Shown here: one piece after another, positions 1 to 47,903 of the stretch
Layout: the number at the start of each line of letters is the position of its first letter
Numbering within the stretch: the first letter of the stretch is position 1
IMG/VR virus record: IMGVR_UViG_2767802067_000002
Coordinates: 47,332 to 111,331 of that record
DNA: 64,000 bases
From: a virus
Lineage: Duplodnaviria; Caudoviricetes
Reading direction: 5' to 3' (one strand)
The notes under the pieces: generated by a model
What the model saw: the letters and a program-made list of their open reading frames with translations, nothing else
Told to the model about the DNA's origin: nothing
The model's database searches: none
Translations under genes and position numbers: made by a program

Positions 1-423
1 GGCGAGGAGCTGGAGCACGTCGTCGTCCAGGCCGGAGTAGGCCCGCCAGTCGACGTCCTCGATGGCGTCGTACAGCTGCTTGAGGGTCGCCGGGTCGTCC
101 TTGCCGGTGATGGCGTTGTGGGAGAGCTGGCGGGCGATCAGCTCGTCCTTGTGCTGCGGGTCGGAGATCAGCATGACGTCGATCTCTTCGAGGCCGGCGG
201 CCACCGAGGCGTCGCAGCGGTGGTTGCCGGACAGGACGAGCTCGCGGCCTTCCTCGTACTCGCCGGCGCCGCCGTAGATCAGGGGGACGCTGGTCAGGCA
301 GCCGTCGGCCTTGACGTTGGCCACCAGCCGGTCGAACTCCTCCTTCGTCTGGTAGTGCGCGTTCACCTGGAGGCGGGTGAGGAGCCGCGGGTCGCGGCGG
401 ACCAGGCGGGGCTTGATCGTCAT
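1..423 (-). CDS. ParB/Srx-like N-terminal domain protein (runs off the window edge)
   Basis: Hand translation from ATG at 423: MTIKPRLVRRDPRLL...NAHYQTKEEFDRLVANVKADGCLTSVPLI...VLSGNHRCDA...QLSHNAITGKDD. Has the ParB-type GxHR motif. Start overlaps the upstream stop (ATGA). Confidence 0.8.
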   Translation of the reverse strand, partial: MTIKPRLVRRDPRLLTRLQVNAHYQTKEEFDRLVANVKADGCLTSVPLIYGGAGEYEEGRELVLSGNHRCDASVAAGLEEIDVMLISDPQHKDELIARQLSHNAITGKDDPATLKQLYDAIEDVDWRAYSGLDDDVLQLLA

Positions 424-1778
424 CGGTTGAGGTCCTTTCCGTGCTTGCGCTTCCACAGGTCGAGGGCGCCGTCGAGGTCGTAGGTGCCGAGGGGGCCGCC
501 GTACTGCAGCTGGTAGGCGTGGATGCCGTCGCCGGGGTCCTTCGCGCTGGCCTGGGTGCGCTTCTGGAGCTTCACGCCGGGGATGCCGCGGCCGTACTTC
601 GCCGAGTTGGGCCGGTCGGTGAACGCCGTGGTGGACCAGGCGTCGATCCGCTTGGACAGGGACCGCTGAACGAGGAGCTGCGCCTCCTTTGTGGAGGCGG
701 CCATGACGATCAGCTTGGCCAGGCGCCGGTACCGCGACCACGACACCGGGAAGTCGGACATCAGGTAGGCGCAGTTCGGGTCGAACTTCGGCGGCAGGTA
801 GGCGAACGCGCCGATCAGCTTGCCGTCGACGGAGACGCCGCAGGCGAGCAGCGGGCTGCCGGGCAGGATGCTCTTGGACATGAACTGCGAGCGGATCGCG
901 GCGAACTGGCCGCCGGTCAGGACGTGCAGGGCCATCCGCTCGCCCAGTTCCTCGTCCTGGCCGATCTTCGGCATCTTGATCGTCTCGATGGGCTGGTGGG
1001 GCCGGACGATCCGGCGGGGTCCGGAGGCGGCGTACACGTAGATCGGCAGGCCGCGGTTGGCGGTCTGGACGACGCCGGCGAGCTGCGGGCGCAGCTCCGG
1101 GCGTTCGATGTGCAGGCCGAGGACCCAGTGCGGCCGGTCCTGGACCTGCTCGATGATCCGCTCCTTGCCTTCCTCGGTGAGGTCGCCGAACGTCGGCTCG
1201 GGCCAGGCGAACGCGGCGTCGATCGGGGCGAACTGGGCCTGGTAGTCGCCCGAGTAGAACGGCGGGAACATCACCACCGGCGCCTCGGGCGGCACCTCCT
1301 GGTCGAGGTAGTCGCGGACGTCGCCGGCGAAGAACCCGCCGAGCTTCGTCTGCAAGCCCTTGAGCTTGGTGGCGGTCTTCTCGTGCATCCGGGGCCACTG
1401 GTCCTGCGTCGCGGCCATCATCCGCCGGTAGTAGGCGCCCTCCTTGCCGACGAACTGGAGGAAGCGGGTGCCGAGCATCAGCGTCGCCATCAGGTCGGTG
1501 CGGTCATCCAGGTACGGGTGGAGCCAGCCCAGCTCGTCCTCGTACTCGGGGCGCAGCGTGAACTCCAGCGGCTGCCCGGCGAGGAACCAGCCGAGGGAGC
1601 ACGAGTACGCCTGGATGTCGTTGCCGTGGACGCGGCGGGCGTCGCCGAAGCGGGAGTGGAGCACCCGCTCGATCGTGAAGTTGCCGGAGCAGCCGACGTA
1701 GATGTCCTCCCCGGGCCACTCGCCGGCGTGCTCGTAGATGATCGAGCGGAGCGGGGCGGGGATCGAGCCACGGAACAC
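420..1778 (-). CDS. DNA modification protein: N-terminal adenine-MTase-like fold fused to C-terminal GNAT/Mom-like domain
   Basis: GTG at 1778 with GGAGG RBS. N-half has IYVGCSGNFTIE, VHGND, FAGDV and VMFPPFY (motif I-IV-like). C-half has GVSVDGKLIGAFAY...YLMSDF...RYRRLAKLIV...STTAFT (GNAT-like strand/helix order). Confidence 0.6.
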   Translation of the reverse strand: MFRGSIPAPLRSIIYEHAGEWPGEDIYVGCSGNFTIERVLHSRFGDARRVHGNDIQAYSCSLGWFLAGQPLEFTLRPEYEDELGWLHPYLDDRTDLMATLMLGTRFLQFVGKEGAYYRRMMAATQDQWPRMHEKTATKLKGLQTKLGGFFAGDVRDYLDQEVPPEAPVVMFPPFYSGDYQAQFAPIDAAFAWPEPTFGDLTEEGKERIIEQVQDRPHWVLGLHIERPELRPQLAGVVQTANRGLPIYVYAASGPRRIVRPHQPIETIKMPKIGQDEELGERMALHVLTGGQFAAIRSQFMSKSILPGSPLLACGVSVDGKLIGAFAYLPPKFDPNCAYLMSDFPVSWSRYRRLAKLIVMAASTKEAQLLVQRSLSKRIDAWSTTAFTDRPNSAKYGRGIPGVKLQKRTQASAKDPGDGIHAYQLQYGGPLGTYDLDGALDLWKRKHGKDLNR

Positions 1779-1849
1779 GTCGGCCTCCTGGTGCGCCTGG
1801 GGAAGGGCGCCGGCCAGCGGCTGACCTGCACCGGCCCGCGCGGCCAGGA

Positions 1850-1867
1850 ATGATGACACATCAGACG
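1850..1867 (-). promoter_or_regulatory. Motif CGTCYGATGTGTCATCAT, copy upstream of the modification gene
   Basis: 17/18 identical to 2098-2115. Confidence 0.55.
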
Positions 1868-1947
1868 TGGGCGGACGTTACTGGACAGTCCTGGACGGTT
1901 CCGGACGATCGTGGACGCCCGGCGCCGGTCGCCGCGGCCCGGAACGG

Positions 1948-1979
1948 GCGAAGCCCCCGCCGCGGGGCGGGGGCTTCGC
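1948..1979 (-). terminator. 14-bp perfect stem-loop just downstream of tRNA-Gly
   Basis: GCGAAGCCCCCGCC-GCGG-GGCGGGGGCTTCGC. Confidence 0.7.
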
Positions 1980-1984
1980 TGGGG

Positions 1985-2056
1985 AGCGCCAGCCAGGATT
2001 TGAACCTGGGCCTCTCAACCTGGAAGGCGAGCGTGCTCACACTGCACTACCGGCGC
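1985..2056 (-). tRNA. Atypical tRNA-Gly (anticodon TCC)
   Basis: Acceptor GCGCCGG/CTGGCGC plus discriminator U. D-stem GTGC/GCAC. Anticodon loop CTTCCAG. T-arm CCAGG-TTCAAAT-CCTGG. D-loop lacks GG, anticodon stem is bulged, no encoded CCA. Confidence 0.8.
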
Positions 2057-2097
2057 ACGCCCGGCTGCGACGCTGCACGCTCAGCCGGACAGGACAG

Positions 2098-2115
2098 ATG
2101 ATGACACATCGGACG
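2098..2115 (-). promoter_or_regulatory. Motif CGTCYGATGTGTCATCAT, copy upstream of tRNA-Gly
   Basis: 17/18 identical to 1850-1867; lies about 40 nt before the tRNA 5' end. Confidence 0.55.
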
Positions 2116-2363: not shown

Positions 2364-4379
2364 TCAACCCTCCCAGCAGGCGACCACCATCCCGGCCGCC
2401 GGGGCGGGTGCGGTCGCGGCCTCGGCGATGATCTCGGCCATGCTCACGTCCAGGCGGAAGCGGTGGCCGGTCATCTCCTCCGCGAGGGCATAGCGGGCGG
2501 CCAGCGCGGGCTGCAGGTGGGCGGCACGCACGAGCGCGGCCCGGGAGGCCAACACGCAGTTGCCCGTCATCAGGTCCTCGGCCAGCGCGAACGCCTGGGC
2601 GCCGGGGACGACCGCGCAGTACACCTCCTCGACCCGATCGGTCGGGGTCACCTCGTCGACCACCCACAGCCTGTCGTGCGCTTCGCGGACGGTGGCCTTC
2701 TCGGCAATCCGGTCGCGGTGGGCGTCGATCTTCCAGAACCAGTCCGGCAGGTCGGTGGCGTCCAGCGTGATCGTGTAGAGCGGCGTGGCCGCCTTGCCCG
2801 TCCCGACCCGCATCGACGTCCTCACCGGCCCGTACCCGACGCCGCACACCGCGGCGACATCCCGGATCACCTGCATCGACTCCTTGCTCGCCGAGGCCAT
2901 CCGGGCGGAGCCGTGCTCGGTCACGGTTCCGTCGGCCGCGAAGTAGCCAGCGAGCCAGGACAGCAGGAACGACCGGGACTCCCGCAAGTCCGGGCCTTCC
3001 TTCCAGAGCCGGGGCAGGCCGTAGATCCTCAGTGCGTCCTTGCCGTTCAGCCTGGTCGGCTTGGGCCGGTGCGCGGCGAAGTAGGGCAGGATCGCACCGT
3101 CCTTCTCAGCCAGGTGGATGTCGAGGCATGCGGGGCGGTCGCCCGACCCCTTCGTCCCGTCGCCGTACACGAAGCCCTGCGCGACCGCGAACGGTACTTC
3201 CCCGCCCTGGGCCAGCGACTGCGCCTTCACGCTGCGCAGCCTGGTGCCCAGGGTCAGCTCGCTGGTGACCAGCTCGACCGTCACGTCCTCGTAGCCGTTG
3301 TGGCGGCCGTCCTTCTTCGGCGGCCGCAGCTTCCGGTCCCAGGTCAGCCACCGGTGCTCGGCGGTGGCGTGGACGATCCGGGTCTGCCGCCCGCGGTGCA
3401 TCGTGATGCGCCACAGCCGCTGGACGCCGAACGCTCGGACTTCCACCTCCTTGAACGATCCGGCCCCGCTCAGCCCGTACGGAGTGACCTTCGGGATCAG
3501 CAGCTCATGTCGCCCGCCGGCGAGCTCCGCGATCGGGCGCAGCCCGGCCCGGGTCACGACCTCGGTCTCACCGGCGAGGCAGAACACGCAGCTCAGGCGC
3601 GGCATCCCAGCCTTGTAGGCGGGGTGCGGGCGGGTGCCCGCGACGAAGATCGCGGCCCAGACGTCCGCCGTTGACCAGCCGTGGATAGGCAGCCAGGTGT
3701 CCACCCACCGCAGGGTGTTCGACGCACCGTGCTGCATCCGGTCCTTGGCCGGGATCTTCTTCGGTTTGAGCCCGGCGGCCTCGGCGGCCTTGGCGGCCTC
3801 CTTCGCGGCCTCGGTGGCCTTCCGGCGCCGCTGGCACTCCGCGCACGGGCAGGTCTTCGAGCCGTCGTGGCAGAAGGGCACGAGCTTGCGCCGGGCGGCG
3901 CTCTCGTCCGCGCGCAGGCCCATCACGTTGAGGATCCGGACCACGCCGACGTGGCCGGCGGCCCGGGCCTCGTTCACCAGCATGGTGATCAGCTTCCGGA
4001 TCGGCCCGCGCTTAAAATCCGATGTACACCACCTGTTGTCGGCCGAAGGCCACATGCCGCGTTCTTCGACGCGCTCGATCAGGTTGGAGCCGACCCGCTG
4101 CACCGTCTCGAACCGCAGGCCGTAGTGCCGGGCGTGCTCCTCGGCGAGCTCCCGCACCCCGGGCCACTCGACGATCCCGAGGTCCGCGTGCACCACCACG
4201 ACCCGGTCCGCGACGCCGGCCGCCGTGGCGTGCAGCATCAGCTCCGCGAGCATCGCCTGCGAGTCCTTGCCCCCACTGACGTTCGCGATGATCCACCGGT
4301 ACGAGGCGAGGTCCGGCACCTCGGGGCGCAGCTCGACCAGGTCGAACGCGGCCTGCCCGGGGATGACTCGTCGCGCCAT
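2364..4379 (-). CDS. PAPS reductase family (PP-loop) protein interrupted by an intein
   Basis: ATG at 4379 with AGGAGG RBS. Motifs ANVSGGKDS, RWCTSDFKRGPI, GLRADESAAR, LPIHGWS, HPAYKAGMPRLSCVF. Confidence 0.9.
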   Translation of the reverse strand: MARRVIPGQAAFDLVELRPEVPDLASYRWIIANVSGGKDSQAMLAELMLHATAAGVADRVVVVHADLGIVEWPGVRELAEEHARHYGLRFETVQRVGSNLIERVEERGMWPSADNRWCTSDFKRGPIRKLITMLVNEARAAGHVGVVRILNVMGLRADESAARRKLVPFCHDGSKTCPCAECQRRRKATEAAKEAAKAAEAAGLKPKKIPAKDRMQHGASNTLRWVDTWLPIHGWSTADVWAAIFVAGTRPHPAYKAGMPRLSCVFCLAGETEVVTRAGLRPIAELAGGRHELLIPKVTPYGLSGAGSFKEVEVRAFGVQRLWRITMHRGRQTRIVHATAEHRWLTWDRKLRPPKKDGRHNGYEDVTVELVTSELTLGTRLRSVKAQSLAQGGEVPFAVAQGFVYGDGTKGSGDRPACLDIHLAEKDGAILPYFAAHRPKPTRLNGKDALRIYGLPRLWKEGPDLRESRSFLLSWLAGYFAADGTVTEHGSARMASASKESMQVIRDVAAVCGVGYGPVRTSMRVGTGKAATPLYTITLDATDLPDWFWKIDAHRDRIAEKATVREAHDRLWVVDEVTPTDRVEEVYCAVVPGAQAFALAEDLMTGNCVLASRAALVRAAHLQPALAARYALAEEMTGHRFRLDVSMAEIIAEAATAPAPAAGMVVACWEG
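2559..3581 (-). mobile_element. Intein (341 aa) with LAGLIDADG homing endonuclease
   Basis: Begins CLAGETEV. Block B HATAEHRW. LAGLIDADG-like AQGFVYGDG and LAGYFAADG. Ends EEVYCAVV...MTGN, followed by Cys+1. Confidence 0.92.
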
Positions 4380-4438
4380 CTGCTCCTCCTTCGGGGTGGG
4401 GGCCGGGACCTTACGGCCCCGGCCCGGCTGTCGGTCGG

Positions 4439-7157: not shown

Positions 7158-9002
7158 TCAGGCCGCGAGGGCCAGCCAGGGGCGCCCCTGGCCCGGCGCG
7201 TACCGGCTGATCTCCTCGCCGGTGATGCACTCGGTCAGGGCGCACATCAAGATCTCGGCGACGTTGGGCGTCACCGCGTTGCCGTACTGCTTGACCCGGG
7301 CCCTCTTCGAGCCGAGCACGATGTAGTCGTCCGCGAAGCTCATCGCGCGGCCGATCTCGTGGGGCTGGAGCATCCGGAACAGGACCCGCGAGAGGTCCCA
7401 CTCGCCGTCCGGGGTGATGAACGCGAACCTGTCGCGGGTCGACTGGGTGCCCATCGGCTCGCTCACCGGCTTGGCCCGGCCGTTGCCGTAGTACGGGACG
7501 AGGAGGCCGTCCCCGGGGGTCACCAGCGACTGGTGGCCCGCCGCGGTCAGGGTCCGCAGCGGCTCGCTGACCGGGGTGCACATCTGACCGGGATCGCCGT
7601 TCGGGGTGTTGTTCCGCATCACGAACGCGGAGGTCACCAAGCCGTGGTGGTTGCCGCCGGCCGACACGGTGTGCAGCGGCTCCCGGATGTGCCTGGCCTT
7701 CTCCAGGTCGCCGCCGCCGCGCATCGGGATGATGAACGGCGCGTAGGCGAGGGCCGTCTCCAGCCTGGTCGTCTGGGTGCGCAGCGGGTCGTCCAGGCGC
7801 ATCGCCTTCTTCCCGTCGCGGCCCTCGCAGGGAATCAGCAGCGGCGGGATCACCAGGCCGTCGCTCTCGCGGGTGGTGCGGGTCGCCATCGGGTCGCAGA
7901 CGCTCGCGGCGCCGTTCCGCCAGGTGCCGCCGGTCGGGACGAGCAGCGGGCCCGGCTGGCCGCCGGTCAGATCGTCGCCGAACAGCGCACCCTGCTGGTC
8001 CCCGAGCGGGCCGCCGGGGGTCGGCCAGAACTTCTCGACCCCGGCCCGGATGCGGGCCATCGTGTTCGGGGCCAGCCCTTCCGGGCACTCCTCGGACTTC
8101 GGCCGGTCACCGATGGGCGTTCCTTCGATCCCCCAGTCGATCGCCGCGGCGGCCGGGAGGACGTCGGGCTCGACGACCTGGCCGCACGAGGACTTCGGGC
8201 ACCGGTAGGTGTAGCTGGCGCGGTACCGGCCCATGTCCTGGCCTGGCTTGTTGAACACCTGCATCGAGTCGACCCACTCGGCGCAGTTGACGCAGAACGC
8301 CTTGGGGCGGAGCCACTTGTCCCAGTCGGGGTGGCGGCCAAGGGACTTGTGCCAGTACGCGACGTACAGCCGGTCGCGGCTCTGCGGGGCACGGTGCACG
8401 CTGCGCGGGTCGGCGTGCATCGAGTTCAGCGCGATGACCCGCACGAAGTAGCCGAGCTTGCGGATCTCGTTCAGCCACTGGTCCCAGTCGACCCAGCTCC
8501 TGACGTCCGTCACGTTCTCGACCACTCCGGCCTTGACCAGGCCGCCGCGCTCGATCACCCCGCGCAGGTAGAGCGGCACCTCCTCCATCAGGGCCCGCGA
8601 CTCTTCCTCCTCCTTCGTGGGGCCGACCGGCTGCCCGTTCTCGTCGAGGAGCGCGGCCTCCTGCTCGGCGTACAGGCTCAGCAGGTCACCCTGCATCGCC
8701 TTGTCGAAGTCCCGCTTCTTGCCCTTGGCGGATGACCAATTGGTGCACTCTGGGGAGGCCCAGAACAGGTCCGTAATCTCCCACGCCCAGACCGGGGCCT
8801 TGCGGATGTCGCCCCGGTAGTGGGCGACGCCGGGGAAGTTGGCCTCGTGGCTGTCGATGGCCTGCTTCCAGTGGTTCGCCGCGCGGGCCACCCGCAGGCC
8901 GGGCACCGCGTGCATGCCCTGGGACGAGCCGCCTGCCCCGCTGAACCAGTCTTGGACCGTGAGCTCGTTCTGGTCGGCCCACTTCGTCCGCATCGCTGCC
9001 AT
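7158..9002 (-). CDS. DNA (cytosine-5) methyltransferase
   Basis: DWFSGAGG (I), WASPECT (IV), VVENV (VI), PQSRDR (VIII), RMLQPHEIGRAMSF (IX), QYGNAV (X). Confidence 0.93.
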   Translation of the reverse strand: MAAMRTKWADQNELTVQDWFSGAGGSSQGMHAVPGLRVARAANHWKQAIDSHEANFPGVAHYRGDIRKAPVWAWEITDLFWASPECTNWSSAKGKKRDFDKAMQGDLLSLYAEQEAALLDENGQPVGPTKEEEESRALMEEVPLYLRGVIERGGLVKAGVVENVTDVRSWVDWDQWLNEIRKLGYFVRVIALNSMHADPRSVHRAPQSRDRLYVAYWHKSLGRHPDWDKWLRPKAFCVNCAEWVDSMQVFNKPGQDMGRYRASYTYRCPKSSCGQVVEPDVLPAAAAIDWGIEGTPIGDRPKSEECPEGLAPNTMARIRAGVEKFWPTPGGPLGDQQGALFGDDLTGGQPGPLLVPTGGTWRNGAASVCDPMATRTTRESDGLVIPPLLIPCEGRDGKKAMRLDDPLRTQTTRLETALAYAPFIIPMRGGGDLEKARHIREPLHTVSAGGNHHGLVTSAFVMRNNTPNGDPGQMCTPVSEPLRTLTAAGHQSLVTPGDGLLVPYYGNGRAKPVSEPMGTQSTRDRFAFITPDGEWDLSRVLFRMLQPHEIGRAMSFADDYIVLGSKRARVKQYGNAVTPNVAEILMCALTECITGEEISRYAPGQGRPWLALAA

Positions 9003-11109: not shown

Positions 11110-11565
11110 TCAGAACAGGGCCGGCTGAGCGAGGGCCGGGGCGGGGGCGGGGCGGCGGATGCGCGGCTTGGCGCCGAGCTCGGGGACCTGCTGGCCGGTC
11201 CGCTCGGTCCACCAGCTCGCGAAGTGCTGGCGGTGGCAGAAGTTGCCGGGCTTGCTCAGAACGTCGAAGCACAGGAGGACGAGCGGGGTGTCTCCGGCGC
11301 CGATCGCGTCGCCGATGGCCTCCAGTTCGGCGCGGACCTTGGCGACGCCGACCTTGTCGAGCTGGTCGCGGTAGCGGAGCTCGTAGGCGTCCTCGGCGAG
11401 GTCCGCGGCGAGGAGCCCCCAGCTCGGGGTGAGGGTGCGGGCGTGCCCGGCGACCGGCTCGAAGAAGGACCGGGCCGCCCCGGCCGTGGTGCGCACGGGG
11501 ACGCCCATCGTGAGCCGGTACTCCTGGTAGGTGCAGGTCGCGAGGTTCAGCTGGCCAGGGAGCAT
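11110..11565 (-). CDS. DUF488-like protein
   Basis: LTPSW...YELRY...LVLLCFD...CHR motif. Confidence 0.7.
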   Translation of the reverse strand: MLPGQLNLATCTYQEYRLTMGVPVRTTAGAARSFFEPVAGHARTLTPSWGLLAADLAEDAYELRYRDQLDKVGVAKVRAELEAIGDAIGAGDTPLVLLCFDVLSKPGNFCHRQHFASWWTERTGQQVPELGAKPRIRRPAPAPALAQPALF

Positions 11566-11605
11566 CGCGCGTCCTTCCTGTCGGGGTCTGTGGTGGTTTG
11601 TGGTG

Positions 11606-11692
11606 CTACCAAGATCATTTCCCGTGGGGCCCTGGCTAACCCATTTGGCCAAATGAATTTGACAAAGAGTTCGCCAGGAACCCGCAGGTCAG
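11606..11692 (-). promoter_or_regulatory. B-type element with CTGACCTGCG motif
   Basis: Boxes at 11636 and 11650; GAAATGAT. Confidence 0.7.
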
Positions 11693-12702: not shown

Positions 12703-13146
12703 TCAGAGATCGAACAGGGTGGGCGGCGCGGCGGGCGCCTGCCGGGGCTGGGCGCCCAGCTCGGGGATCACCTCGCCGGTGACCTCCTCGTACCACCGCG
12801 AAAACTGGTTCCGGTGGCACCAGTTGCCGGGCTTGCTGAGCACGTCGAAGCAGAGCAGGACGAGCGGGGTGTCGCCCGCCCCGCTCCGGCGGGCGATGAA
12901 CTCCAGCTCGGCGCGGATCGCGTCGATGCCGGTCGCGTTGAGCATCCGCCGGTACTGGAGCTCGTAGGCGTCGGCCGGGAGGCCGTTGCGGGCGGCGTCG
13001 ACCAGGTCGCGGCTCGGGGTGATGCTCTGGGCGTGGCCGGCGACCGGCTCGGTGAAGAACCTGGCTCCTCCGACCGTGGTCCGGACCGCCAGGCCCATCG
13101 GGGGCCGGTACTCCTGGTAGGTGCAGGTCGCGAGGTTGAGGATCAT
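12703..13146 (-). CDS. DUF488-like protein, paralog of 11110-11565
   Basis: LNLATCTYQEYR and GDTPLVLLCFDVLSKPGNxCHR shared. Confidence 0.7.
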   Translation of the reverse strand: MILNLATCTYQEYRPPMGLAVRTTVGGARFFTEPVAGHAQSITPSRDLVDAARNGLPADAYELQYRRMLNATGIDAIRAELEFIARRSGAGDTPLVLLCFDVLSKPGNWCHRNQFSRWYEEVTGEVIPELGAQPRQAPAAPPTLFDL

Positions 13147-13220
13147 GCTGGGCGGTTCCTTTCGGTGCTGCTGGTGGTGGGGGGTCATCTTGGGGCCTTT
13201 CGCGGTTCGGGGTGGCGGTG

Positions 13221-13309: not shown

Positions 13310-14140
13310 TTACGCGGCGATGCCGAACAAGCCGAGCTGGAGCGGCTGGCGCTGGAGCCAGTCGTAGGTGCGGAGCGGGCCGCCCGCGTACCCGGGGATG
13401 AACACCAGGCAGGTCCGGACGTTCGTCCCGCAGACCGCGAAGCTGTCCTCGGGCAGAGCCTCGATCTCGCCGCCGACCTCCTCGACCATCGCGCGGAACT
13501 CGACCGAGGCGCGGTCGCTCCACCACATCAGGCCCTGGGACATCACGGAGACCAGGATCCCGTCGTCCTTCATGAACCCGATCGCGTGCTTGATGTGGTC
13601 CAGGCCCCTGGCGAAGGGCGGGTTCATCACGATCCGGTCGAAGCCCTCCGGGTAGTCCAGTGGGTCCAGGGAGAGGAAGTCGTCGCGGATCACCGCCCGG
13701 CAGTCGCCCTGCCGGCGGAGGACGTCGGCGCGCACGGGGTCGATCTCGACGGCGTCGACCAGGGCGCCGCGCCTGGCGAGCTCGGCGGTCAGGGCGCCCG
13801 ACCCGGCCGAGGGCTCCAGGACGGTCGTCCCGGCGTAGACGCCGGCGAGGTCGCAGATCTGCATGGTCAGGCTCGGCGGGGTCGGGAACCAGCCCTGCTC
13901 GGTGCGGGTGGGGAACTCGCCGGCCGTGAGGCACTGCCGCATGTGCTCCTCGACCCGGTACGGGAAGACGTGGGCTCGGACCGCCGTGCGGCTGTCCCAG
14001 CGGCCGCCCATCTCCTTGAGGACGCGGTCCACCTGCTCGTACACGGGGCGGTCGAGCTCGAAGGGGATGCGCACCCGGTCGTCGCGGATCTCGGTGCGCG
14101 GGTCGGTGAGGACGGCCAGGGCGTCGCTGGGGAATCGCAT
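13310..14140 (-). CDS. SAM-dependent amino (N6-adenine-type) DNA methyltransferase
   Basis: WFPTP, VLEPSAGSG, AVEID, DFL, IVMNPPF; C-terminal QLGLF. Confidence 0.88.
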   Translation of the reverse strand: MRFPSDALAVLTDPRTEIRDDRVRIPFELDRPVYEQVDRVLKEMGGRWDSRTAVRAHVFPYRVEEHMRQCLTAGEFPTRTEQGWFPTPPSLTMQICDLAGVYAGTTVLEPSAGSGALTAELARRGALVDAVEIDPVRADVLRRQGDCRAVIRDDFLSLDPLDYPEGFDRIVMNPPFARGLDHIKHAIGFMKDDGILVSVMSQGLMWWSDRASVEFRAMVEEVGGEIEALPEDSFAVCGTNVRTCLVFIPGYAGGPLRTYDWLQRQPLQLGLFGIAA

Positions 14141-14173
14141 GGGGCTCCGATCTCTCTCGGCTGGGGGTGGGGT

Positions 14174-14206
14174 GGGGCGCACCGCGGTTCGGTCGGGGTG
14201 CGCCCC
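14174..14206 (-). repeat. Intergenic hairpin family H2 (loop ACCGAAC on the minus strand). Copies also at ~14972-15004, 22898-22947, 47022-47060.
   Basis: CGGTTCGGTCGGG core within differing inverted-repeat stems. Confidence 0.75.
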
Positions 14207-15041: not shown

Positions 15042-16253
15042 TCAGGCGGCGGCCAGCTCCGGGTTGATCCGGATGATGGAGCCCTCGCGCACCGAGGCGA
15101 TGGCCTCGGCCTTCCGCATGTTGGCCTGCGCCTTGGAGATGACGTCGGCCAGGTGCTTGAGGCGCAGCGAGTAGCCGCCGACTCCGCCGGGGGTGCCGGC
15201 GAGCAGCAGGGCCAGCTCCTCCGGGTCGGCCGCGGCCAGGTCGGCGAGCACCTGGCCCGCGCCGCTCATGCTGTCGACCCGGCCGACGAGCTTCTTGCGC
15301 TCGCCCTGGATGCGCTCGCGCTCGGACTCGGGGAGGTGCGCCGCACCTCCGGGCAGCAGCTCGCCCTGCTGGTCCTTCGTCTGCCGCGGGGCCTCGTCGG
15401 CGAGGACGAAGAAGCTGCCCTGGTCGGCCTGCCGCTTCTCCTCGGAGTGGGCGGCCTGGGCGAACGCCTCGGCGTCGCGGACGGTCTTGAACTCGCCGCG
15501 CGCCCACTTCCCGAGGAACCGCTGCTGGTTGTCGGGGCTGAGCTGCGCGACGTACCAGGAGAGGCCGACCGGCAGGTGGCCCTTGGCGAGGGCGTCCTGC
15601 GCGGCGTCGCTGAGCTTGAGGAGGTCGATCCGCCAGCCCACGTACTGGACGGACTTGCCGACCATCTTCGCGACCTGGGCGGGCTCGTAGCCGTGCTCGT
15701 CCACGAGGCGCTTGAAGGACTTCGCCTCCTCCATCGGGGTCATGTCCGCGCGGGCCGCGTTCTCGGCGACCTGCTCGGCCAAGGTCTTGCCCGCCTCGGC
15801 CTCCCCGCCGCTTCGGACGACGGTCTTCATGTGGGTGAGGCCGGCGAGCTGCGCGGAGTGCCACCGTCGCTCGCCCACCACGATCACGTAGCGCTTGACG
15901 CCGATCTTGCGGACGGTGATCGCCTGGAGCTGGCCGAGCTCCTTCATCGACTCGGCGAGCTCCTGGATCTTGACCGGGTCGAACTCCTCGCGGGGCTGGT
16001 CCGGGTCGGGCTCGATCTGCTCGATCGGGATCAGCTTGTGCGTCTCGCGCACCTCACTGGCGGCCGCTTCGACCTTCTCGGCGGCCACCTCGCGGCGCTT
16101 CTGGACCCGGGTGGGCTCGATCGGCTCGGCGGCCTTCTTCGCGGCGCGCGGCTTGGCGGGGGCCGCCTTCTTCGCGGCCGCCGGCTTGGCGGGCGCGGCG
16201 GCCTTCTTCGCGGCGCGGGGCTTGGCGGCCTTGGTGGCAGGGGTGGCGGTCAT
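15042..16253 (-). CDS. ParB/RepB/Spo0J-family protein (403 aa; shortest in-frame unit of a 1183-aa frame)
   Basis: IEPDPDQPR, GQLQAITVR, IVVGERRW, ENAARADMTPMEEA, HTH; Lys/Ala-rich N-tail; own RBS and B-type promoter. Confidence 0.88.
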   Translation of the reverse strand: MTATPATKAAKPRAAKKAAAPAKPAAAKKAAPAKPRAAKKAAEPIEPTRVQKRREVAAEKVEAAASEVRETHKLIPIEQIEPDPDQPREEFDPVKIQELAESMKELGQLQAITVRKIGVKRYVIVVGERRWHSAQLAGLTHMKTVVRSGGEAEAGKTLAEQVAENAARADMTPMEEAKSFKRLVDEHGYEPAQVAKMVGKSVQYVGWRIDLLKLSDAAQDALAKGHLPVGLSWYVAQLSPDNQQRFLGKWARGEFKTVRDAEAFAQAAHSEEKRQADQGSFFVLADEAPRQTKDQQGELLPGGAAHLPESERERIQGERKKLVGRVDSMSGAGQVLADLAAADPEELALLLAGTPGGVGGYSLRLKHLADVISKAQANMRKAEAIASVREGSIIRINPELAAA

Positions 16254-16928
16254 GGCGCTGGCCTTCTGGGTGGGGTGGTGGGTGGCTACACCATCATCAT
16301 TTCCGGAAGTCGACTTGTCCAAACCAATTTGAGCAAAGTAGTTGCCGCAAATCCGCAGGTCAGAGGCCGCGCCAGCCCCCTGCTCGACCTCGTCGGCGGG
16401 CTCCTCGATCGGCTCGACCAGGGTCGGTTCACCGGCGGGCACGCGGAAGAGCTGGCCGTTCGGCCGGACCGCCCAGTCCTCGCCGTCCGCGAGGCCGAGC
16501 TGCGCCATGTTCACCGGCTTCCCGCAGGCGTCGCAGCCGAAGTCGCCGCGCTCGCGGGCGCGCACCGGGGCGCTCTCGTCGCAGTGCGCACAGACCATCG
16601 GGACCAGGTCGTCGCGGTCCTCGCCGGGTCGTGCGGCCGGGGCCGGCTGGGCGGCGCCCACCGCGACCGCGTAGGCGTTCGCGTAGGGGGCCAGCTTGTT
16701 GCGGGAGTCGTTGCCCCGATAGAGGGAGCGGATCGGGTCCTGCCGGAAGCCCTTCACCCAGACTTCCAGCGGCTCGGGCGCGTAGTGGCCGTCGGTGCCG
16801 CCGAGCTCGTAGGAGACGTGGCCGCTGTACGCGGCGCGCTCGAACTCCTCGGCGCCCATGGCCAGCGGCTTGTTCTCGCCGAGCAGGGCCTGGAACCAAT
16901 CCGCGTAGGGGGTGGTGGCGTTGGGCAT
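15042..16928 (-). CDS. Internal-start form: hypothetical Zn-ribbon domain fused in frame to ParB (628 aa)
   Basis: GAAGGCCAGCGCC-ATG behind a B-type promoter; CAHC...CDAC; no stop before ParB. Confidence 0.6.
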   Translation of the reverse strand: MPNATTPYADWFQALLGENKPLAMGAEEFERAAYSGHVSYELGGTDGHYAPEPLEVWVKGFRQDPIRSLYRGNDSRNKLAPYANAYAVAVGAAQPAPAARPGEDRDDLVPMVCAHCDESAPVRARERGDFGCDACGKPVNMAQLGLADGEDWAVRPNGQLFRVPAGEPTLVEPIEEPADEVEQGAGAASDLRICGNYFAQIGLDKSTSGNDDGVATHHPTQKASAMTATPATKAAKPRAAKKAAAPAKPAAAKKAAPAKPRAAKKAAEPIEPTRVQKRREVAAEKVEAAASEVRETHKLIPIEQIEPDPDQPREEFDPVKIQELAESMKELGQLQAITVRKIGVKRYVIVVGERRWHSAQLAGLTHMKTVVRSGGEAEAGKTLAEQVAENAARADMTPMEEAKSFKRLVDEHGYEPAQVAKMVGKSVQYVGWRIDLLKLSDAAQDALAKGHLPVGLSWYVAQLSPDNQQRFLGKWARGEFKTVRDAEAFAQAAHSEEKRQADQGSFFVLADEAPRQTKDQQGELLPGGAAHLPESERERIQGERKKLVGRVDSMSGAGQVLADLAAADPEELALLLAGTPGGVGGYSLRLKHLADVISKAQANMRKAEAIASVREGSIIRINPELAAA

Positions 16929-18593
16929 GGCGCTGGCCTTCCGGGTGGAGTGGTGATTGGTTACACCTCCATCCTTTCCGGAAGTCGACTTGTCCAAACC
17001 AATTTGAGTAAAGAAGTTACCGCAAATCCGCAGGTCAGAGGCCATCTCCGGCTCCGGCTCGGCCTTCGCGGCGGGCTCCTCCGTGACGGGCTCCGGCTCG
17101 ACCGGCGGGACGTCGGGCGCAGCCGGCTGCCCGGCCGGGACCGGCTCCGGCGCCTGCTGCTCGGCCGCCGCCGGGACCGGCTCGATGGCGCACACGATGC
17201 CCTGGCCCGGCGAGCCCTTCCAGCTTCCCCGGTGCCGGTAGCCGTGCTCGGCCAGCACCGCGGTCACCTGGGCCAGCAGGGCGCTCGACCACACCGACTC
17301 GGTGTACTTCCGTCCCTCCGCCGCCCGGATCGTCACCGGCTCGTGCGCGCCGTGCGGCTTGCCCACCCCGTTCAGCCAGGACAGCGCCGCCTCCGTGGCG
17401 TCCCACCGGCACTCGACCTTCACCCGCTTTGGCACCTTCGGGTCGGCCCGCTTCTTCGGCGCCTTCGGCTTCGCCGCTGCGGCCTCGCGCAGGGCGCTCG
17501 CCGGGTGCGCCGCCGACGCCTCCCGGGCCGTCTTGAGGCCGGGGACCTTCCCGTCCGCCATGTAGGCGTCCATCGTCGCCTCCGGGCACCGGCCCTTGAC
17601 CTTCGTGTAGTCCGCCGTGTGCGTGCCGACCAGGCCGTCCTGCGTGGCGTCCGCCACGGTCAGCACGTTGCCGGACAGTCGCAGGTTCCACGCGATCGAC
17701 AGCGACTTTGCGTTCACCCGGGCCACCTGGTGCCAGGTGCCGATGTAGCAGACGTAGTCGCCCGGCACGAAGTCCTCCGGGCGCCAGATCTTGGCGCCGG
17801 CGGCCTCGGCGTCGGCGACGACCCGCCGCCAGTAGCCGAGCTCGTCGGCCAGGTCCAGCAGGTCCAGGTCGTTCGCCGCGAGGACGTCGACCAGCACCTC
17901 GGGCCCGATCTTCCCCGCGATGGCGCTCTTCACTGCCTTGCTCTGCTGGCGGTGCAGCCCGCGCTCCTCGGCCTCCAGCTTGGCGATCCGGCGCAGGGTG
18001 ACGCCCGGGTCCTTGCGGTGCTGCTCGTAGTGCTCGGCGGACACCGCGCGGTCCGCCCAGTGCCGGAAGCGGTCGGCCGCCTCGATCGACTTCCGCATGT
18101 GCGAGTCGATCCGCTCGGCGTCCTTCTCGGCGCGGCGCTGGCTGTGGTGGCCGACGAGGATCGGCTGCCCGAAGGGGATGTGGCGCACGATGTCCCCGGC
18201 CGCCTTGTGGCGGGCGTCGGACTCGGCGGCGGCCCGGCCCGCGTAGCCCTCGAAGCGCTCGGCGCGGTCCTCGGCCCGCTCGGTGCGGTCGTCCTCGGCC
18301 TCGGCGAAGGACCGGCGCACGTACTCGTCGACCTCCACCGTCACCGGGTAGCCGGCGGCCTCCAGGGCCCGCTGGATCTCGTTGATCTTCCAGCTGGCCC
18401 GCTTGTCGCGCGAGTTCCGCAGGTACAGGCCGACCGTCCTGGACGAGCGGACGCCGAGCGGGTGGACGATCTCCCAGACGCCGTCGCCCGGGCTGGAGCC
18501 GTCCAGCAGGGTGCCCGCCTCGCGGGTGTGCGTGATCGTGATGTGCGGCTTCGGCCGGGCGCTGTCGGCCGGGGTCTTCTCGGTGCTCTCCAT
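15042..18593 (-). CDS. DUF3560-domain protein reading in frame through to ParB (1183 aa)
   Basis: MESTEK start with GAGGAAG RBS; ERAEDRAERF...IPFGQPILVGHHS is the DUF3560 signature; no stop codon until 15042. Confidence 0.7.
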   Translation of the reverse strand: MESTEKTPADSARPKPHITITHTREAGTLLDGSSPGDGVWEIVHPLGVRSSRTVGLYLRNSRDKRASWKINEIQRALEAAGYPVTVEVDEYVRRSFAEAEDDRTERAEDRAERFEGYAGRAAAESDARHKAAGDIVRHIPFGQPILVGHHSQRRAEKDAERIDSHMRKSIEAADRFRHWADRAVSAEHYEQHRKDPGVTLRRIAKLEAEERGLHRQQSKAVKSAIAGKIGPEVLVDVLAANDLDLLDLADELGYWRRVVADAEAAGAKIWRPEDFVPGDYVCYIGTWHQVARVNAKSLSIAWNLRLSGNVLTVADATQDGLVGTHTADYTKVKGRCPEATMDAYMADGKVPGLKTAREASAAHPASALREAAAAKPKAPKKRADPKVPKRVKVECRWDATEAALSWLNGVGKPHGAHEPVTIRAAEGRKYTESVWSSALLAQVTAVLAEHGYRHRGSWKGSPGQGIVCAIEPVPAAAEQQAPEPVPAGQPAAPDVPPVEPEPVTEEPAAKAEPEPEMASDLRICGNFFTQIGLDKSTSGKDGGVTNHHSTRKASAMPNATTPYADWFQALLGENKPLAMGAEEFERAAYSGHVSYELGGTDGHYAPEPLEVWVKGFRQDPIRSLYRGNDSRNKLAPYANAYAVAVGAAQPAPAARPGEDRDDLVPMVCAHCDESAPVRARERGDFGCDACGKPVNMAQLGLADGEDWAVRPNGQLFRVPAGEPTLVEPIEEPADEVEQGAGAASDLRICGNYFAQIGLDKSTSGNDDGVATHHPTQKASAMTATPATKAAKPRAAKKAAAPAKPAAAKKAAPAKPRAAKKAAEPIEPTRVQKRREVAAEKVEAAASEVRETHKLIPIEQIEPDPDQPREEFDPVKIQELAESMKELGQLQAITVRKIGVKRYVIVVGERRWHSAQLAGLTHMKTVVRSGGEAEAGKTLAEQVAENAARADMTPMEEAKSFKRLVDEHGYEPAQVAKMVGKSVQYVGWRIDLLKLSDAAQDALAKGHLPVGLSWYVAQLSPDNQQRFLGKWARGEFKTVRDAEAFAQAAHSEEKRQADQGSFFVLADEAPRQTKDQQGELLPGGAAHLPESERERIQGERKKLVGRVDSMSGAGQVLADLAAADPEELALLLAGTPGGVGGYSLRLKHLADVISKAQANMRKAEAIASVREGSIIRINPELAAA
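16254..16368 (-). repeat. B-type element embedded in coding frame; near-identical copy at 16929-17043
   Basis: Shared TTTCCGGAAGTCGACTTGTCCAAACCAATTTGAG..CGCAAATCCGCAGGTCAGAGGCC. Confidence 0.9.
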
Positions 18594-18658
18594 CGTCTTC
18601 CTCTCGCTCGTGGCATGGGGCGGCCCGGCCCCCGGGCTGGGGCCGGGCCGGTGGCCGG

Positions 18659-19042
18659 TCAGAACAGCGGGTCCTGCCCGTCGGACGGGGCCGGGCCGGA
18701 GGGGGCCGCGTCGAGCCGGGCCCGGTCGAGCTGGGCGCGCATCTCGCGGATCGCCGCGGCGACCCGCTCGCCGAAGGCCGCCAGGTCCTCGCCCTCCTCC
18801 GGGCGCATGTCCCGGCTGGTGCTGAGGTTGCCCTTGGCGACGGTCACCCCGATCAGGTCCTCGTCGAGGGCGTCGTCGTAGATGCCCGCGAAGATGACCT
18901 CCAGGACGCCGTCCTCGATGACCTCGCGGTGTCCGAGCTCTCGGCCCGTCCAGCTGGGGCCGAGGAGGCGGGCGACGTAGGGGGCCAGGTCGCACAGGTA
19001 GAAGGTGGTCGCGGCCGGGTCGGGCGTGGCGGTGGCGGTCAT
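18659..19042 (-). CDS. hypothetical protein (127 aa)
   Basis: GAAAGG RBS; ends QDPLF. Confidence 0.75.
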   Translation of the reverse strand: MTATATPDPAATTFYLCDLAPYVARLLGPSWTGRELGHREVIEDGVLEVIFAGIYDDALDEDLIGVTVAKGNLSTSRDMRPEEGEDLAAFGERVAAAIREMRAQLDRARLDAAPSGPAPSDGQDPLF

Positions 19043-40673: not shown

Positions 40674-40757
40674 GGGCGAGTGGCGGAACCGGCAGACGCA
40701 GCGACCTTAAAAGTCGCGGCCGCTCGCGGCGTGTGGGTTCGACTCCCACCTCGCTCA
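40674..40757 (+). tRNA. tRNA-Leu (anticodon TAA), bldA-type specificity
   Basis: Acceptor GGGCGAG/CTCGCTC plus A73; anticodon arm GCGAC-CTTAAAA-GTCGC; long variable arm GCCGC-TC-GCGGC; T-arm GTGGG-TTCGACT-CCCAC. Confidence 0.93.
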
Positions 40758-40774
40758 CGGCTCCCGGAAACGGT

Positions 40775-47063: not shown

Positions 47064-47903
47064 TCACGGGGTGGCGGGCTGGACGAGGAAGACGCGGTCG
47101 TGGCTGATCCAGACCTCGTCGCCCGGGCCGGGGCGCAGGCTGCCCGCGCTACCGGTGGTGCAGCGGACCTTCACCCGGTCCTTGCCGAGCTTGATGACGG
47201 GGCCGAGGATCGTGGCCTGGTAGCGGCCGGACGTGGTCCCGCCGACGGTGTCGCCCTCGTATCCGGTGCGGCCCGCGGCGTCCCGGAAGGACGGCCGGGG
47301 CGCGGGCTCCGAGGTGACGGGGAGCCGGTGCATGTGTTCCTTGCAGTCGGCGCAGCGGCGGCTCTGCCAGCGCTGCCCGTCTTCCTCGTACTCGGAGGTG
47401 ATCTCCCACGACTCGTGGGGGCACGGGAGCTCCGCGCCGATCTCCTTGGCGTACTGGGCGAGGAGGGCGGCGGCCCACTCGCGGGCGTCCTCCGGGTGCG
47501 CGCCGGTCTCCTCGTAGAGGTCGACGAGGCGCTGCACCGCGGTACGGTCCGCGGCCTGCTCCTCGGGGTCCTCGTAGTGCGCCTCGACGGGCCGCCACGC
47601 GGTGACGACGATCGGGACCTCCTCGACCTCGACGGCGGTGACGGTGTCGCCGGTCCAGCCGTGGTTCTCCGGTGCGCCGCCGCCGACCTCGAAGTCCCCG
47701 AGGTCCAGCTCGGCCTCGTAGGTGACGGTGTAGGTCCGGTTGTCGCCGTCGGCGTCGCGGAACACCACGGCGCGCTCCTGGCTGTACTTGAGCGTGTAGA
47801 GCTTCTGGTCGTCGAGGATGACGTCGCCGTCGATGTCGTCCGGGCTGCCGGGCGGGACGCCGAGGGCGCCGAGCTCGGCGTGGGTGAACTCTCGGGTGAT
47901 CAC
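47064..47903 (-). CDS. hypothetical multi-domain protein (279 aa)
   Basis: GTGA coupling; GAGGA RBS. Confidence 0.72.
   Translation of the reverse strand: MITREFTHAELGALGVPPGSPDDIDGDVILDDQKLYTLKYSQERAVVFRDADGDNRTYTVTYEAELDLGDFEVGGGAPENHGWTGDTVTAVEVEEVPIVVTAWRPVEAHYEDPEEQAADRTAVQRLVDLYEETGAHPEDAREWAAALLAQYAKEIGAELPCPHESWEITSEYEEDGQRWQSRRCADCKEHMHRLPVTSEPAPRPSFRDAAGRTGYEGDTVGGTTSGRYQATILGPVIKLGKDRVKVRCTTGSAGSLRPGPGDEVWISHDRVFLVQPATP

Follow-up and report, generated by a model that had tools for sequence, protein, structure and literature searches.

The DNA analysed here, hereafter the window, is a 64,000-nucleotide stretch of a viral record (positions 47,332 to 111,331 of IMG/VR record IMGVR_UViG_2767802067_000002) and belongs to contig C11 from a Streptomycetaceae genome. 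Inside a prophage and directly before the terminase genes, it encodes an atypical tRNA-Gly(UCC), a fusion enzyme that joins a Dam-like, S-adenosylmethionine (SAM)-binding half to a GNAT half, and a ParB-like protein (Table 1). We consider it probable that the tRNA serves as a private aminoacyl-tRNA donor for a Mom-like modification of phage DNA. This reading rests on the anatomy of the unit, on the linkage of tRNA to enzyme across loci, on selection acting on tRNA structure and identity, and on protein folds. The unit had been proposed from its sequence (the original prediction), and its enzyme gene, with FPPFY as methyltransferase motif IV and an ATGA overlap at 420-423 that joins it to the ParB-like gene, was confirmed.

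The tRNA gene matches Rfam RF00005 with 49.9 bits (E 9.9e-9) and its minimum free energy (MFE) fold is a cloverleaf; ARAGORN detects it without being able to assign its type. G1-C72, C2-G71, G3-C70, U73, C35 and C36 are all present, that is, the full set of determinants for bacterial glycyl-tRNA synthetase (GlyRS) (PMC9976931). The D-loop (AGUGUGA) lacks GG, the T-stem contains A51-U63, and there is a one-base bulge in the 3' strand of the anticodon stem; these features and the identity elements are as originally described. A C32-G38 pair is possible, the T-loop has UUC with C49-G65 and C50-G64 in the stem, and CCA is not encoded (CCC follows). The host has three canonical tRNA-Gly types, one of them UCC, from which the window's tRNA is widely different in sequence. 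In the nearest homologous locus (Kitasatospora, enzyme 93% identical), the tRNA shares the bulge, shows a compensatory stem change and carries the anticodon ACC.

Linkage of such a tRNA to the enzyme is common. Homologous loci were drawn from IMG/VR, GTDB and GenBank and clustered at 97% identity (136 clusters) and at 60% (40 clusters). As predicted, a tRNA-Gly lies near the enzyme in most of them: in 106 of the 136 clusters it is on the same strand no more than 700 nt upstream, in 3 it is divergent, in 6 it is within 4 kb and in 21 none is found, giving 115/136 when all within 4 kb are counted. The corresponding numbers at 60% are 21, 2, 4 and 13 (27/40 linked). An anticodon-blind descriptor found 108 cloverleafs with an xCC anticodon in 114 kb of upstream sequence, compared to 8 in 2.9 Mb elsewhere. 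One cloverleaf descriptor preselects part of the acceptor stem, although not the 32-38 pair discussed below; ARAGORN, which makes no such preselection, gave the same Gly-type genes. Because a strict cloverleaf descriptor overlooked genuine copies, a covariance model replaced it.

The hosts of these loci include Streptomyces, Micromonospora, Nonomuraea, Dormibacterota, Chloroflexi and Bacillota, and the enzyme family is rare per genome (6/301 in the order). Cultured phages with the unit are the cluster W mycobacteriophages, Gordonia phages Soos and Clawz, Microbacterium phage ValentiniPuff and Faecalibacterium phage FP_Brigit. In the cluster W phage Argie, tRNA-Gly, enzyme and ParB are genes 73-75; in its relative Taptic, the linked tRNA-Gly is the only tRNA (PMC5356062). 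Soos (anticodon CCC; L010:5821-5892) and Clawz (UCC; L011) each have an unannotated tRNA-Gly-like gene upstream of the enzyme, missed by annotation because its T-loop is destroyed. Individual loci vary: L126 has two tandem tRNA-Gly(CCC) copies before the enzyme (approximately 1480-1626), and the linked tRNA of L114 (320-388) has a Gly-type acceptor stem and an anticodon loop without CC. Members without a detectable tRNA include prophages of Salmonella (L415, a plasmid record) and Peribacillus (L416), both with enzyme, ParB and terminase; the latter locus also retains DUF488.

The pattern of conservation among the glycine tRNAs (clade I) is informative. An alignment of 38 diverse copies shows no variation at G1, C2, G3, C35, C36, C61, C70, G71, C72 and U73, which are the bacterial GlyRS identity set (PMC9976931) plus C61. 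Stems in these copies are 97.5% paired, with compensatory change at 18 of 22 pairs, and the linked tRNAs are therefore not pseudogenes. Canonical features were compared between 107 unique linked copies and 48 host tRNAs: U33 is present in 73% of linked copies, a purine at 37 in 85% and U8 in 69% (100, 100 and 94% in host tRNAs), and D-loop GG and a UUC T-loop in 50% and 75% (98 and 96%). Only 3 of the 107 are fully canonical, as opposed to 42 of the 48. Conversely, a C-G or G-C pair at 32-38 is found in 88% of linked copies and 6% of host tRNAs; these positions are paired in 38/38 diverse copies with compensatory changes, and in 93% of the full set, producing a six-pair stem and a five-base loop. 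The anticodons of the 107 copies are UCC (68), CCC (24), ACC (13) and GCC (2), and the wobble base has changed at least 13 times on the enzyme tree. A UGC T-loop occurs in 21 of 115 linked tRNAs (18%).

The hallmarks of the family are thus the 32-38 pair and the free wobble base. The original prediction had instead singled out GG loss and A51-U63, markers that are true of the window's copy and of only about half of the family. The statistics above support two sequence-based proposals: that selection acts for charging, and not for decoding, of the linked tRNAs, and, as first predicted, that the tRNA would be kept out of translation.

The system is wider than glycine. A search with the ParB gene led to FP_Brigit and ValentiniPuff, whose enzymes, encoded upstream of ParB, fall into these two Pfam families as well, with 18-21% identity and the motif NPPTY (clade II). 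In the 58 clusters of clade II, the upstream tRNA is of the Arg type in 22, Lys in 16, Gly in 7 and Pro in 3 (one doubtful), with none in 7 and sequence that is too short in 3; the type of the ValentiniPuff tRNA was assigned by hand. All clade II linked tRNAs have C1-G72. Synthetase marks are kept (for Arg, a GGA D-loop with A20, C35 and G/U36; for Lys, U35, U36 and A73), and each type has lost a canonical feature of its own: U33 is present in only 24% of Arg tRNAs, the T-stem is intact in 1 of 25 Lys tRNAs, and a UUC T-loop is found in 2 of 15 Gly tRNAs. This independent, repeated decay of ribosome-facing features with retention of synthetase marks is the strongest argument for the linked tRNAs being amino acid carriers of the adjoining enzyme. 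On the enzyme tree, 4 changes suffice to account for the tRNA types, compared to at least 17 in shuffles, a pattern that represents tracking and not causation since kin share labels. Motifs in GNAT strands beta4 and beta5 also vary with tRNA type: the Gly subclade has bulkier residues there and the Arg clade an invariably kept type of residue, a conserved Glu, with one event in each case. The clade II tRNA-Gly genes (L249-L254, L283, L286, L292, L303 and L317) form a sequence type of their own, which nests beside the Lys group.

The 452-residue enzyme is a clear member of both PF22555 (DAM-like-phage1) and PF22559, scoring above gathering for each, and its AlphaFold2 (AF2) model has a pLDDT of 92. 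In searches with this model, the N-terminal half best matches M.CbeI, EcoDam, T4Dam and DpnM (Z 11.1-11.5); N-methyltransferases of RNA and protein are also among the best folds, with comparable Z. It has a class I fold with SAM-binding motifs I-III: motif I reads GCSGN, and G32, D54 and D153 are conserved in 99, 100 and 98% of 229 sequences. Motif IV, here FPPFY, departs from the catalytic pattern (D/N/S)PP(Y/F/W). It reads FPPF(Y/F/W) in clade I, where the first position is F or Y in 96%. Because motif IV in this clade is without D, N or S, the acceptor of the Dam-like half may be other than free adenine N6.

The original prediction took this half to be degenerate, a view that does not stand if degenerate means dead. 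Its SAM-binding residues are invariant and its ratio of nonsynonymous to synonymous substitution rates (dN/dS, 0.24-0.28) is like that of the GNAT half (0.19-0.34). Seventeen homologs (P0012, P0018, P0124, P0157 and others), some of them named Hint proteins, have an intein-type insert directly after motif IV, and clade II has NPPTY. Judged by its SAM motifs, dN/dS and use as an intein target, the Dam-like half is evidently not dead. Long forms of the enzyme occur in clade II as well. An S-adenosylmethionine synthetase gene lies 1.6-3 kb upstream in 8 clusters (L172:1-654 and 7 others), mostly of the FP_Brigit group.

The C-terminal half has the predicted GNAT fold, with Mom among its best matches: folded alone, it retrieves Mom (8bv8) at rank 2 of 48161 (Z 10.8 over 141 residues, 3.1 Å). 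The nearest named ESM cluster to the enzyme is also Mom (PF25680, 0.89), which we treat as a lead only. The enzyme is thus Mom-like by fold, as was proposed, without being a member of the Mom family; a search of PDB sequences with the family profile returned only noise, with no match to the Mom chain, and NCBIfam gave no match to the enzyme. The acetyl-CoA motif A (R/QxxGxG/A, between beta4 and alpha3) is absent from all 119 representatives, which fits a donor other than acetyl-CoA. Family invariants of the GNAT half are R296, D342, T383, K394, Y395, R397 and Y426. Structures of the TacT and Fem types are not among its top 50 folds, a result that does not exclude them. Fusion of the Dam-like and GNAT halves is found in every full-length member.

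Proteins of PF22555 and PF22559 are named "putative antirestriction adenine methyltransferase" in NCBI and UniRef. The functions of both families are predicted only; neither function, donor nor linked tRNA is on record in the sources searched. Both presumably derive from the 2013 paper of Iyer et al. in Nucleic Acids Research on predicted DNA-modification systems. In the literature surveyed, which did not cover that paper, we found no publication that connects this enzyme with a phage tRNA, and none that describes modified DNA in the phages concerned.

In the mechanism that we propose, the phage would transcribe its own tRNA-Gly, host enzymes would add CCA, and host GlyRS, as the conserved identity set suggests, would charge it. 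The altered anticodon arm, D- and T-loops and T-stem would bar the tRNA from the ribosome and from EF-Tu, leaving a private pool of activated glycine. From its fold and context, the GNAT domain is predicted to take glycine from this tRNA, and not an acetyl group from acetyl-CoA, and, like Mom, to transfer it to an exocyclic amine in the DNA of the phage, with N6 of adenine as the most likely site. The Dam-like domain would bind SAM and flip the base, and would probably methylate either the base or the attached amino acid in a SAM-dependent second step. The ParB-like protein may be an activator or loader, as for phage T-dioxygenases, and the purpose would be to protect phage DNA from restriction. 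In other clades, tRNAs for Arg, Lys or Pro would take the place of tRNA-Gly. In its broadest form, this proposal describes a widespread phage family that writes Gly, Arg, Lys and Pro on DNA bases, with each clade's ribosome-excluded tRNA as donor and an added SAM-dependent step; we offer it tentatively, as a serious possibility.

Several observations weigh against a Mom-like use of a dedicated donor. Half of the family still has D-loop GG, and A51-U63 occurs in only half of it as well as in 13 of the 48 host tRNAs, so that exclusion from EF-Tu is not uniform. The C1-G72 of clade II Gly tRNAs conflicts with the G1-C72 determinant of bacterial GlyRS. The Mom fold match is tied with ordinary acetyltransferases, the Mom Pfam family PF25680 is not matched by the enzyme or by 104 homologs, and the catalytic residues of Mom (H58, Y59, R111, S124, D149, R151 and Y159) could not be placed on the GNAT half. 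Mom chemistry leaves the conserved methylase-like half unexplained, giving it no role, and Mom itself works with host tRNAs. Finally, the clusters whose retrieved flanks contain no tRNA even when filters are disabled (21/136, or 13/40 at 60%) imply that the tRNA is accessory or located elsewhere.

A private aminoacyl donor could serve an acceptor other than plain adenine N6. This might be cytosine N4, a base on which the Dam-like domain or some other enzyme has already acted, or a protein such as ParB, terminase or a virion protein, and the linkage and tRNA evidence is equally compatible with this. Many GNATs use aminoacyl-tRNA to act on peptides and proteins (PMC13219725), the N-terminal domain matches RNA and protein N-methyltransferases nearly as well as Dam, and clade I motif IV lacks the D, N or S that contacts adenine N6. 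However, the fusion to a Dam-type fold in all full-length members, the basic conserved residues and the ParB-terminase locus point to double-stranded DNA, and Mom is the nearest named family; we regard another acceptor as unlikely, though not negligibly so. It is improbable that the GNAT is of the TacT/AtaT type, acetylating aminoacyl-tRNA with acetyl-CoA, with the phage tRNA as substrate, decoy or antidote. TacT is indeed a GNAT that acts on Gly-tRNA-Gly (PMC13219725), and tracking of the enzyme clade by tRNA type is also compatible with such a role. Yet motif A is missing from 119/119 representatives, TacT-type structures fall outside the top 50 folds, there is no antitoxin gene, the fusion to a Dam-like domain is constant, and a tRNA unfit for translation cannot replace a host tRNA.

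As phages often carry tRNAs, the tRNA of the unit might instead serve translation, as a codon supplement or as a replacement after attack by host anticodon nucleases, and merely travel with the enzyme; the 3 canonical copies among 107 and the absence of the tRNA from 19 of 61 clade I clusters agree with this. We nevertheless judge it very improbable: the host owns a tRNA-Gly(UCC), U33, purine 37, T-loop and D-loop have decayed, and the wobble base has changed repeatedly, including to ACC, even between loci that are 93% alike. In cluster W phages it is the sole tRNA (PMC5356062), yet it is always next to the enzyme. Codon compensation was rejected, as GGA is not enriched in the prophage (4.1% of glycine codons, compared to 5.0% in the host). 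That the tRNA is a pseudogene or the remnant of an integration site is scarcely credible, even with its bulged anticodon stem, unencoded CCA and a type that ARAGORN cannot name. All stems show compensatory changes, the bulge is shared with a relative that has a compensatory change of its own, and the flanks are promoter-like and terminator-like. An attachment-site remnant was rejected: the sequence is unlike host tRNA-Gly, and the tRNA sits inside the prophage, before terminase, and is also present in phages without an integrase.

To our knowledge, Mom is the only enzyme that modifies DNA with a charged tRNA. The staphylococcal non-proteogenic (NP) tRNAs are the classic dedicated non-translational tRNAs. 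Mom uses Gly-tRNA-Gly on adenine in double-stranded DNA (PMC13219725), and the unit described here resembles Mu Mom (8bv8; PF25680) in its GNAT fold, in being phage-encoded, in the absence of the standard acetyl-CoA motif, in its link to Gly-tRNA-Gly and in its presumed action on double-stranded DNA adenine against restriction. In contrast, Mom is a stand-alone dimer with a helix-turn-helix (HTH)-like insertion that uses host tRNAs, whereas this enzyme is fused to a Dam-like domain, has 11% identity to Mom and its own tRNA, depends on or accompanies ParB and DUF488 genes, and includes clades whose tRNAs are of the Arg, Lys and Pro types. The staphylococcal tRNA-Gly (NP1-NP3) are used by FmhB, FemA and FemB (PMC7826273). 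They share with the phage family the full GlyRS identity set, a six-pair anticodon stem with a five-base loop, A51-U63, a UGC T-loop (in part of the phage family) and dedication to a GNAT-fold transferase. They differ in being host-chromosomal, confined to staphylococci and directed to a cell-wall acceptor, whereas the phage tRNAs are phage-borne, have a free wobble base and are of independent origin; of the full staphylococcal set (UGC/UGU T-loop, A49-U65, U50-A64 and A51-U63), the window's tRNA has only A51-U63. ParB-terminase loci and ParB-dependent T-dioxygenases (PMC4738411, PMC13229309) likewise combine a modifier gene, a ParB-like gene without ParA, and terminase, but involve other chemistry, with no tRNA described. 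Dam-family N6-adenine methyltransferases (EcoDam, T4Dam, DpnM) share the N-terminal fold and motifs I-III; unlike them, the present enzymes are fused to GNAT and have FPPF(Y/F/W) (clade I) or NPPTY (clade II) in place of DPPY.

The unit therefore most likely resembles, in its working, Mom plus a private tRNA of the staphylococcal type, while being a member of neither family. It would combine these two ideas in a single unit, which is common among phages of soil and gut. If this is true, the presence of only one tRNA in some phages has a non-translational explanation, and two Pfam families whose function is unknown gain a donor. Amino acid-bearing DNA bases beyond glycine would also be expected, several of them not yet described, along with a natural set of orthogonal tRNA-enzyme pairs.

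Table 1. Features of the tRNA-enzyme-ParB locus and related genes in the window.
Feature	Position	Strand	Evidence or remark
Atypical tRNA-Gly(UCC)	1985..2056	-	Rfam, ARAGORN, MFE fold
Fusion enzyme, Dam-like SAM-binding + GNAT, 452 aa from GTG	420..1778	-	Pfam, PHROG 7858, AF2, fold searches
Dam-like domain PF22555, residues 2-272	963..1775	-	E 2e-102; 342 bits (gathering 27)
GNAT domain PF22559 (GNAT-phage-like), residues 280-447	438..941	-	E 7e-55; 186 bits (gathering 27)
ParB-like gene, 320 aa	1..423, on to window position -539 (G000:C11:229100-230062)	-	ATGA-coupled
18-nt repeat, copy 1	2098..2115	-	41 nt before tRNA; probable extended -10 promoter (TG-N-CATCAT)
18-nt repeat, copy 2	1850..1867	-	Before enzyme gene; probable second promoter
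Perfect 14-bp GC hairpin, terminator-like, no U tail	1948..1979	-	Just 3' of tRNA; -33.4 kcal/mol, z -5.9
Leader hairpin, GAGCAGCGGC-like loop motif	2058..2091	-	Directly 5' of tRNA
DUF488-like gene, possibly a detached fourth unit member	11110..11652	-	Hidden Markov model (HMM), E 2e-29
Second DUF488-like gene	12703..13188	-	Same HMM, E 9e-26

Downstream of the enzyme, the ParB-like gene overlaps the terminase small subunit gene by ATGA, and the terminase large subunit gene then follows. ParB-terminase loci are predicted sites of DNA modification, and since the ParB-like gene adjoins the terminase genes, the unit occupies the modifier slot of such a prophage locus (PMC4738411). Activation of a DNA modifier by phage ParB proteins is established for the T-dioxygenases (PMC13229309). 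The ParB-like protein matches the PHROG ParB-like nuclease (E 1e-7) and has 42-47% identity to products of phage genes annotated as ParB-like; it does not reach the Pfam threshold for ParB_N. A ParB-like gene is directly downstream of the enzyme in at least 53/60 and 47/53 clusters, and a DUF488-like gene is upstream in 32/45 and 44/49. The two DUF488-like genes of the window, which lie 9-11 kb from the tRNA-enzyme unit, were identified with an HMM trained on DUF488 genes from homologous loci.

The 18-nt repeat before the tRNA and before the enzyme gene is real, although its two copies, originally reported as the same, are identical at 17 of 18 positions. No further copy was found in the 8.8-Mb genome when up to 2 mismatches were allowed, and variants are present at both places in the closest relative. 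A role as a system-specific element was rejected, as a search allowing 2 mismatches did not find the core before other family members; the repeat most likely represents an extended -10 promoter present in duplicate. Of 109 linked tRNAs, 31 are preceded at a distance of 5-75 nt by a TGn(T/C)AnnnT motif, compared to 3 of 109 in a control window. A scan of the locus for sigma-70 promoters and terminators found no full site and no terminator. GC hairpins similar to that at 1948..1979 also follow the tRNA in relatives; the 14-bp hairpin would end the tRNA transcript, which would explain why the enzyme gene has its own copy of the repeat. In approximately 30 close relatives (L001-L033), the loop of the leader hairpin is kept while its stems vary yet pair, and this element could be a processing signal or a protein-binding site.

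The prophage carries further genes of note. Directly upstream of the tRNA is a PAPS-reductase-family gene with a LAGLIDADG intein-like insert (2364-4382, minus strand), a further candidate modifier. A C5 cytosine methylase (7158-8960), a second amino-methylase-like gene (13310-14182) and a gene for a 1317-aa protein with DUF3560, ParB_N and HTH_ParB domains (15042-18995) are encoded on the same strand. The genome's only tRNA-Leu(UAA) (bldA type; 40674-40758, plus strand) is located beside a pyrE-like gene, between two phage-like stretches, and may mark an integration site.

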